Source: Eledone cirrhosa
Taxonomy: Eukaryota
DNA: 64,000 nucleotides
Assembly: GCA_964016885.1 (NCBI GenBank)
Contig: OZ024740.1
Span: 332,072,001-332,136,000, forward strand
Reading direction: 5' to 3'
Shown: one piece after another, positions 52,101 through 55,100 of the stretch
How the letters are laid out: the number at the start of each line of letters is the position of its first letter
How positions within the stretch are numbered: position 1 is the first letter of the stretch
Position numbers and translations under genes: made by a program
Notes under the pieces: model-generated
Told to the model about the DNA's origin: nothing
Databases searched by the model: none
Seen by the model: only the letters and a program-made list of their open reading frames with translations

Positions 52101-55100
52101 GCCCGCAACCGTGCATTGTGTATGTATACTGGGACTGCGTGAATGTACACACTCATGTGAACGCAACGTAATACTAATACCCCACGTTGGATTGATAAAT
52201 GTTCGAGTGTATGCTTAAGAGTATATTTGTATATACTCTCTTGTATGAGTGCACATGTGTATATAGACATACACACGCATCCAGAAGTATAAAAGTATGG
52301 GTGGGTATATATGTCTGTACTAAGGGATTCGCCTAATCTCCAAAGCCGCAAAGCTATTGCTGTGAATATATATATCACCTGTGTCTAGTCTAAACAATAA
52401 CTTTTCCAAACACCCACTTTACTTTTCTTTAAAAATAACACCCACCTAGTTTTATGTCTGCCTTATACTTGGATATGGGGGCCTCTGTTGTATATATATA
52501 TATTCAACTGTGCGTACATATATATACACACCTGTATGGATTTGTGTGTGTAGATGTGTGTGTGTCTGAGGGGTAGGTGTGAGTGTATGTACAAGTCAAC
52601 CAACATAAGCCTTTTATTTCTAAATTTTCTAAACTATCTAAGTATTTGACTGTAAACATTATTTTAAGTATTACCACCCCACATTAATTCCTCTATTTGT
52701 ATGTGTGGATGTGTGTGTGTGTCTGTGGAGGTGGGTATGAGTGTATGTGCAAGCCAACCTACATAAGGTTTTTTTATTTGTAAATTTTCTACTCTAGCCA
52801 TAATTTTCAGTAGCAACACTCCACATAAATTCCTCAATTTAAGAATGACCTGTAGTATCTATTTCATACTATTAACCTTAATTGAATATATAACTGACCA
52901 AGAATGGTCATATGGAACTATTGTCATCTTGCCTGACGGTTTGAACTTTACAACAACACCCGCCTCTTTGAGGTCAAATACCAACCCTACTAGCATCTAC
53001 AAACTGACCAATGAGAATTAAAACTATTCCTGCTGACAACATTAAATTCTTCCTAACAAGCTCATATGTCCCAAGGCTCTGAAACCATCAACACTATAAA
53101 CACAGAGCTGGCATATCTAAGAACTGACTAACTGCCTGATGAGGTCATAGCCATTCAATGGCTATCATCGAAATATATATAGCAGTAAATAAAGGATTAT
53201 GAGTTCATGCAATTGACTTATGTTTCGTCACTATATATATATATCTGTTGCTTTCCTCTGTTTTTCTTATTTCTTCCTTTTTTCTTTTTTTCTTTCTTTC
53301 CTACTGTCTTTATTTATCTCTTTCTTTTCTCTCCATGCATTTCTCTCTCTCCGATATTTTTCCACGTTTTTTTCTTTTTCTTTTTTCTCTCTCTCCGTCT
53401 TTTTTCTTTCTCTCCGTCTTTTTCTAATTGTCCTTAACACTAAGACTTATTAAAATAATATAAACAATTCACTATCCAGATGGCTTCCAAAAATAATGGT
53501 TGCATTTTAAATGGGTACGTCAAAGCTGTTATATATTGTATTTTGTCTGATGAAGGCATACCATAATTTAATTTGGTATCCCTGAAATATGTATAATGAA
53601 ATAAATATGGTTTTATAAATATAGTTTCCATTTATTAATATCGTATATCTACTCCAAATACTTGTCGAGTGCTTTATATCAGTTATAAAAATGTTTACTT
53701 GTTGTATCCCAACAATTTTAAATAGAACTTTTGCATATATATATATATATATTCAAATTATAATGCGCATAGAACAAAGACAATGGAAAATAATCGAAAA
53801 AGCGGACAGTCCCATTTTCTAAGTCAGCTTCTGGAAGTCAGTACGGTTTCTGTTCATTAAGGTCCATAATCTTCAATCCAATTGACATTCGGATGTAAGA
53901 AGCAGGTAGAGACAAGTTATACCGTTAGGCAAATAACACATATAGAGACTGCCCAAGGGCTTGGCCAAAGAAGAAAAAAATATAGAAAAGAGAGAAATAG
54001 TAAAACAGAAAAGAATAAGGAATGTAATATTACACACACACACACACACATATATATATTTATATATATATATATATATATATATATATATATATATATA
54101 TATATATATATATATATATAGAGAGAGAGAGAGAGAGAGAGAGAGAGAGAGAGAGAGAGAGAGAGAGATTTTGAGTATATGTTGGTTGTATACCAACACC
54201 TCAGTATACAGGCTGGAGCACTCGACGAAGTGCGCAGGTTGGTTTGGTTACTCCGGAGTAATGTAAAATAAAGTTAAATAAAAAGTCAAATGTTTAAAAT
54301 TTAGCTTCGTTTGTTACTGCTATATATATTTCAGTGACAGCCATCTTTGGCTGTGACCTCTTCAGGTAGTTTGAATTAGTGTGGTATAGACAAGTACAAA
54401 TGTTGTTGAGGTGTATAATTTTTTCAATACTCTGATATGCCCAGTTCCTGGTTGGGTTGTTATTTCACTGAGGAACTGGAATCATATGATTCCAGTTCCT
54501 CAGTGAAATAACAACCCAACCAGGAACTGTCAATTGGATTGAAGATTATGGACCTTAATGAACAGAAACCGTACTGACTTCCAGAAAATTATACACCTCT
54601 CAACACTAATTCAAACTGCCTGAAGAGGTCACAGCCAAAGATGGCTGTCACTGAAATATATATAGCAGTAATAAACGAAGCTAAATTTTAAACATTTGAC
54701 TTTTTATTTAACTTTATTTTATATATATATATATATATATATATATATATATAAATTATTTTCGATGAAAAATACATGTATTTTTCATCGAAAAAATAAA
54801 TTTTTTTAAAATATTTTTGAATACGTCTCTTTTCATGATATTCGGATTACATTGAGTTCTTCATACGGATTGGACACTACCGTACATTTTGGTAGATTTA
54901 TCTACATATATATATATATATATATATTTATGTATGTATATATATATATATATATATATATATGTGTGTGTGTGTGTGTGTGTGTGTGTGTGTGTGTGTG
55001 TGTGTGTGTGTGTGTGTGTGTGTGTGTGTGTGTGTGTGTGTGTGTGTGTGTGTGCGAGTGAGTGCGCGTATGTGCGTGTATGTATGGCCAGCTTACAATT

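Follow-up and report, generated by a model that had tools for sequence, protein, structure and literature searches.

Closest described systems

The closest described counterparts of the structure reported here are the inverted pLTRs of EN+ Penelope-like elements (PLEs). As described in PMC8557442 and PMC3846280, a 5'-truncated copy of such an element lies next to an adjacent inverted truncated copy, the head-to-head junction forms a palindrome, a tail is found at a single end, the pLTR carries a hammerhead and (TA)n is targeted. PMC8557442 lists the origin of the inverted repeats and of the one-sided tail among unresolved questions; for rotifer Penelope, in which junction palindromes and a one-sided tail are described, PMC3846280 proposes self-priming on an antisense template. 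In vitro, the purified PLE PAc (Poseidon from Anolis) is described in PMC11167929 as cutting and extending both target strands and as initiating at two positions inside the RNA, one at each boundary of the tail. An internal promoter is described for Drosophila Penelope (PMC2377424), and R2 cDNA ends are described as snapping back on the cDNA or on nearby flank before joining (PMC11371274). Non-LTR retrozymes (bioRxiv 10.64898/2026.07.22.740005) are described as head-to-tail tandems with ends set by cleavage.

The fold-back in the window (the whole stretch of 64,000 nucleotides that was analysed) is almost certainly composed of two hammerhead-bearing pLTR ends of a Penelope-like element, placed head to head in (TA)n. 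It is one damaged copy of a dispersed family and no locus-specific device. The family has the arrangement of the EN+ PLEs outlined above, together with a C-terminal GIY-YIG domain and upstream cysteine cluster resembling those described for Neptune/Nematis. It differs from the EN+ PLEs of PMC8557442 and PMC3846280, as far as those descriptions extend, in that both copies are pLTR-only, cut at a fixed base, without an ORF and present in the hundreds, in that the tail measures ~95 nt rather than 30-40, and in that the pairing of short and long ends is near-absolute (68/70). The parallels with PAc would comprise two internal RT start sites bounding the tail, AT-rich targets, extension of both strands and a hammerhead dispensable for insertion. 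For PAc, however, the two strands showed no difference in start site, whereas here each insertion combines the apparent start sites as a pair, both located ahead of the ATG, and the portion of PMC11167929 covered contains no inverted-copy model. With the retrozymes, as presented in that preprint, the unit shares a non-coding, pLTR-derived and non-autonomous character and a type I hammerhead; in contrast to them it is arranged head to head and starts 167 nt before the cut site, where its ends show no pile-up. The likeness to the R2 junctions of PMC11371274 would lie in priming by a cDNA end, on itself or on flank close by, ahead of the join.

Structure of the locus

The fold-back and its surroundings comprise the following features (window positions).

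53829..53887, plus strand: sequence from which the insert was copied, belonging to an old repeat; none of 39 other scored matches exceeds 80% likeness
54050..54168, no strand: left target microsatellite, (TA)n(GA)n by sequence
54169..54487, minus strand: long arm, pLTR +1..+319 to the distal 3' end (site B), a 97% match to the family unit (L001); abuts (TC)n(TA)n and is sense to the host gene
54169..54263, minus strand: one-sided tail of ~95 nt between end A (+224/227) and end B (+319), running on into 5' leader and ORF in full-length copies
54442..54529, no strand: perfect 88-bp palindrome, what remains of the inner portion of the family's palindrome of ~450 bp; its centre is the +1/+1 junction at 54484-54487
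54528..54586, minus strand: locally templated insert, 57 nt plus 2 nt of microhomology on each side, replacing ~20 nt of the right arm
54585..54604, plus strand: short resumed arm piece +66..+83 followed by a ~25-nt deletion, joined via a short shared word (alignment)
54605..54724, plus strand: short arm +108..+224/227, to the proximal 3' end (site A), antisense to the host gene
54720..54753, no strand: right target microsatellite, (TA)n by sequence
54759..54794, no strand: 36-bp palindrome beyond the element, on the margin of a different repeat and no part of the family

The geometry described in the earlier note is recovered. Exact searches find its perfect 88-bp palindrome and its ~59-bp reverse-complement segment, the latter as exact inverted copies of 59 bp, and its 36-bp palindrome is present as well. 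The inverted arms of ~150 bp exist, but that length was generous: the outer arms (54261-54382 and 54603-54724) extend over 122 nt at 98% identity, with mismatches at 2 of 115 outer positions, and a further block of 15 bp pairs 54408-54422 with 54585-54599. The continuation of the element to 54169 as a one-sided tail had been overlooked. The fallback offered there, that the structure most simply reflects an inverted PLE insertion, was right, and family membership is now established. The more elaborate readings find no support: the nested layout is a scar on an otherwise simple palindrome common to the whole family, and the viroid-like appearance is explained by a genomic inverted duplication with this scar on top of it.

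A dispersed family of paired pLTR ends

Copies were sought in the 3.0-Gb genome that contains the window. The 22-nt palindromic centre has 206 exact genomic matches compared with 0 for the reversed control, so that chance is excluded, and a 25-mer from the arm has 1579. With the 460-bp element as query there were 1,744 candidates, of which 40 were scored; the best 11 other loci are uninterrupted palindromes of ~450 bp with a one-sided extension, lying within (TA)n. With the centre as +1, the comparison covered 241 arm segments from 164 loci after removal of duplicates, part of these loci having been chosen for likeness to this copy and a separate subset by the arm 25-mer alone.

The arms have two fixed 3' ends: 208 of the 241 segments stop at +217..230 (A) or +312..319 (B), and (TA)n/(TC)n adjoins 202 of these 208. 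Pairing is strict. Among 79 close pairs, 70 are head to head versus 2 same-strand neighbours, and 68 of the 70 head-to-head pairs join an A end to a B end, so that the tail is on exactly one arm (p=4e-18 against 0.5); the same holds for 33/35 head-to-head pairs in the subset chosen by the arm 25-mer only. Paired arms also share their variants. Divergence is 2.4% within a pair and 5.6% between loci (55 pairs sharing 100 positions or more; 15 others were too short to include), paired arms agree at 616 of 643 diagnostic sites where 386 would be expected, and 26 rare variants in the 55 pairs are symmetric across both arms. At the other end of the unit, 108 of the 241 segments have their 5' end at -1..+1, as do 35 of 85 inside-unit 5' ends at +1 in the 25-mer-only subset. 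Reach in the 5' direction varies among the 68 A+B pairs, with arm A longer in 20, arm B longer in 9, both equal in 28 and 11 undetermined. Pile-ups of 5' ends at -79 and -261 were considered as truncations and rejected as subfamily indels.

Several further observations concern the family and its surroundings. Twelve of its palindromic centres lie within 600 bp at G000:C2:69819292-69819893, which looks like a mini-satellite derived from a hairpin tip. Run X4, from a differently labelled organism, contains the same pLTR family and the parent context; the family is therefore shared with a relative. Runs of (TC)n lie between the tail and the (TA)n target, in the window at 54121-54168 and at many B ends, while the parent at the tail end continues as TCTATCT; the (TC)n suggests a stutter at initiation or later slippage. 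A perfect 110-bp palindrome beside (TA)n at window 31339-31448, whose sequence also flanks family insertions at three other loci (L050, L154 and L159), is possibly the head-to-head centre of another element.

The parent element

Longer copies continue from the pLTR into the 3' region and then into RT and GIY-YIG frames. The pLTR lies downstream of these frames in L066, L109 and L111, and upstream of the ORF in sense orientation at 9 of the 25 loci with RT hits, the ATG following ~56 nt further on. The ORF thus has a pLTR on both sides, in the partial tandem of EN+ Penelope-like elements, and the inverted 5'-truncated copy with its one-sided tail is represented by the 68 of 70 pairs with a tail on one arm. 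A YRDD-bearing frame is followed by GIY-YIG in L066 and L109 (frameshifted), the endonuclease matching PF01541 at 22.7 bits against a cut-off of 22.6. A Pfam search of the RT fragment called no RT, and comparison of the fragment with PDB sequences found none; five database relatives are 42-49% identical, four of them with a similar cysteine-rich, endonuclease-like C-terminus by eye, and the relative P0001 has a weak RVT_1 match (E 0.0044, below the cut-off). Ahead of the GIY-YIG domain is a cysteine cluster with spacing wider than the quoted CX2-5CxxC-type motif. On these sequence features, the pLTR and tail unit is assigned to a Penelope-like element with a C-terminal endonuclease. The parent resembles the description of Neptune/Nematis in PMC8557442. 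Microsatellite targeting belongs to that description too, and 202 of the 208 fixed ends here adjoin (TA)n/(TC)n. An identity with Naiad, considered first on the basis of motifs, was dropped given the C-terminal endonuclease; Naiad/Chlamys elements are marked by an N-terminal endonuclease and no canonical hammerhead, whereas here the endonuclease is C-terminal and the pLTR bears a hammerhead motif. In the window, 18530-18826 (plus strand) encodes a C-terminal endonuclease fragment of another Penelope-like family, 31% identical to that of L066.

Long near-perfect inverted arms, a short length and many copies are also what a MITE or foldback DNA transposon, moving as a unit by its inverted ends, would present. 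The ends of this unit are unequal, however, with a 95-nt tail at one side, its arms are 5'-truncated independently and in longer copies reach into the RT/GIY-YIG ORFs, and its centres differ between copies. The truncation series already largely refutes the MITE or foldback reading, to which hardly any credence can be given.

The scar in the right arm

Compared with the family, the right arm of this copy has ~20 nt swapped for an insert of 57-59 nt and has in addition lost ~25 nt. The source of the insert is 640 bp upstream of it. Because the donor's other scored copies are at most 80% alike and the insert is absent from the rest of the 164 loci, being present in this copy alone, it was copied locally. 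The private substitutions of this copy include 54367 and 54313, and the bases at 54399 and 54423 are private to it as well. Interruption of one arm is common: of the 29 sites with the exact centre listed for the contig of the window, 28 were inspected by eye, and a break in one arm at most 111 nt from the centre was seen in 21 of these, the other 7 being intact, so the nested look is the usual damaged state. For this copy, the proposed course of events is that the left cDNA doubled back on itself over 46 nt, switched to its own flanking DNA at a distance of 640 bp, copied 57 nt there and finally joined the shortened right arm. The scar could also be later than the insertion, for example through repair of a fragile palindrome.

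It is highly improbable that the palindrome or the 59-nt insert is an artefact of assembly. Such an origin would fit the lack of a read or contig shown across the insert junctions, and a depth over 54545-54594 of 0 in three runs and of 7-11 in run X1, where it could derive from the donor sequence. However, the arms differ at the 2 outer positions mentioned above, 206 sites show the same structure, with variants specific to the locus, and the insert has microhomology junctions and is itself out of register with the fold axis.

Mode of insertion

The favoured explanation as a whole, a pLTR pair in (TA)n produced by both target ends priming on one RNA and running off it, with no host role, is probable. 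The two-ended single-RNA mechanism taken by itself has a chance close to even, or somewhat below. One end of the cut target would prime at +224 and the other at +319 of the same element RNA. Both cDNAs would then run off the RNA 5' end at a capped start, +1, with an extra G. Their 3' ends may join through self-complementary ATAT, giving a zero-spacer centre, or one cDNA may instead fold back on itself. A cDNA end that folds on itself or on nearby flank could also yield the short inner palindromes and the insert of this copy. In L1 twin priming, two primers on one RNA give an inversion, and the copied region is not known to be duplicated; here, in contrast, the same 224 nt are found in both arms.

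The base before +1, C in the parent, is C in 344 genomic matches, a non-parental G in 257 and A in 116. A hand count of the 36 arm ends at 18 spaced centres (from the first 50 of 92 sites, excluding 15 centres with a single-base spacer, 3 with a zero spacer, those whose spacer is AT only, and a satellite array) gave G 15 times, parental C 14 times, T 6 times and A once, with the non-parental G on both arms at four centres. Against the mechanism, the G can be templated: by our own reading of 22 sampled G junctions, 5 are templated by the opposite arm and 4 are ambiguous (9/22 together), and all 15 single-base spacers are ambiguous as to the origin of the G. The reading of +1 as a start site is weakened because none of the nine ORF-upstream pLTRs begins exactly there, five extending past it and four being cut inside. 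In the predicted fold a 50-nt hairpin has +1 at its base, so this position might instead mark an RT stop. The identity of the arms could instead be due to later arm-to-arm conversion or to one active source locus.

The second arm might also have arisen by self-priming fold-back of a single cDNA, from an antisense template or by homogenisation of the arms after insertion. Among the copies, a jump after a short inner palindrome (13-46 nt) is frequent, direct jumps to (TA)n are found in L028, L158 and L162, both arms of L159 have the same indels, and PMC3846280, in its account of rotifer elements, takes junction palindromes as self-priming. The short-end arm nevertheless reaches further 5' than the tailed arm in 20 of the 68 A+B pairs, a reach that a single fold-back from B cannot produce. 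The commonest centre, moreover, is without a loop, and the four centres with a non-parental G on both arms are likewise at odds with fold-back. Fold-back probably contributes to the junctions and cannot alone build both arms; as the source of the second arm, this group of explanations is unlikely.

Under two-ended priming on one RNA, the palindromes may, tentatively, be fossil double run-off products, in which a dimeric enzyme with two fixed priming sites would have copied the 5' leader of one capped RNA twice and then linked the two cDNA ends. If true, this would account in one step, across PLEs, for inverted pLTRs, a tail on one side and palindromic junctions, and every palindrome would contain internal promoters that face outward and could seed further copies. 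The family has countable rules, namely one short and one long end, identical arms and one 5' stop with an extra G, and these make the question of the PLE inverted repeats and tail directly testable in vitro. PLE-directed searches of the literature outside subscription papers and supplements did not find the rules stated, and they may already be in print.

Hammerhead motifs

The two arms carry the following motifs.

54316..54370, minus strand: type I hammerhead motif in gene-sense orientation, with C>T at 54367 disrupting stem I; cut predicted at 54321/54320
54615..54669, plus strand: type I hammerhead motif with an intact 5-bp stem I, a 2-bp stem III and a palindromic loop; predicted cut 54664/54665

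A pattern scan of the window places hammerhead cores at 54620 (plus) and 54365 (minus), and the CUGAnGA and GAAA core elements with an NUH site (cut triplet AUA) are present in both arms. The presentation of a hammerhead on each strand, as the earlier note had it, is accurate for the core, but the two putative ribozymes are unequal owing to the substitution at 54367: in the predicted fold, the pair probability of stem I in isolation is 0.0 for the gene-sense copy versus 0.7-0.8 for the plus-strand copy. Stem III has 2 bp in both, and ribozymes of this type are described in PMC4209133 as needing a dimer and cleaving poorly. The two hammerheads cannot dimerise in one transcript because they are on opposite strands. 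Rfam gave no hammerhead match at its gathering score or at E<=5, the motif call coming from the pattern scan and fold; weak Rfam miRNA-hairpin matches on the 88-bp palindrome, all below gathering score, were discarded.

Within the family, 113 of 189 copies retain the core together with a stem I of 5 bp and a closing pair that is G-C or G-U. Arm segments show no pile-up of 5' ends at the cut site (+167), and just 2 of the 85 inside-unit 5' ends fall at +163..+172 versus 35 at +1. A pattern search for copies starting at the cut site returned 309 matches, mostly (TA) stem III length variants among the 100 listed, and gives no clean count.

A related hammerhead, 83% alike and with the same palindromic stem III loop, precedes the plus-strand hammerhead by 1.5 kb (window 53125-53200, plus) and occupies the 3' end of an apparent further Penelope copy; it could be a dimer partner only on an antisense transcript. 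Further core matches are at window 53547 (plus), 33735 (minus) and 57508 (plus), of which that at 33735 is gene-sense with a plausible stem I and that at 57508 follows a decayed RT-like frame. A possible GT..AG intron of 68 nt (54318-54251, minus strand; unit +170..+237) with a pyrimidine-rich 3' part begins just past the hammerhead cut and is retained in aligned copies.

The host gene and its transcripts

That the host is a glutamate-receptor gene, as claimed previously, is borne out by PF10613 and PF00060 matches in 4 of 7 exon-like frames tested, which identify a minus-strand ionotropic glutamate receptor. The element lies mid-way in an 8-kb intron of this gene.

50196..58162, minus strand: host intron (GT..AG) between two ligand-binding-domain exons, the flanking exons matching PF10613 positions 28-77 and 78-115

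The long dsRNA that had been proposed is also predicted here, the read-through strands folding to long duplexes with minimum free energies of -314 (over 555 nt) and -331 kcal/mol; in either transcript the antisense arm is transcribed first. The accompanying claim that cleavage competes with this duplex finds no support: the gene-sense stem I has a mismatch and does not fold even alone, and forcing the ribozyme fold costs ~86 kcal/mol. On these fold models, cleavage is unlikely to compete, and the predicted outcome in the pre-mRNA is a long duplex with a silent ribozyme.

An intronic position and the predicted duplex (-314 kcal/mol over 555 nt) are what might suggest that the insertion has been co-opted as a pre-mRNA switch, with hammerhead cleavage set against an ADAR-edited duplex. 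This is very unlikely. The gene-sense ribozyme is one pair short in stem I and lies buried to the extent of ~86 kcal/mol, no same-strand dimer partner is nearby, the copy is young and one of hundreds, and further inverted repeats occur within the host gene. Nor is the element an editing-complementary sequence, the longest word shared with 7 exon stretches being 6-9 nt. The duplex could plausibly undergo passive ADAR editing, which would not make it a switch. Variants symmetric between arms show no excess of A>G (A>G 24, T>C 30, C>T 60, G>A 41) and thus no sign of edited templates. The reads are dominated by other family copies, so their A>G and T>C differences represent paralogue alleles and are uninformative on editing.

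The insertion is likely a by-product without a regulatory role for the host gene, on which it probably has little effect; this single young insertion may add an editable duplex to the 8-kb intron. Transposon biology gains more from it than the host gene does, through the hints that the family gives of a PLE insertion mode. In the same intron, (CA)n(TA)n at 51369-51547 and (TA)n(TG)n at 54903-55086 form an imperfect inverted pair of ~170 nt that flanks the element and could itself form a duplex.
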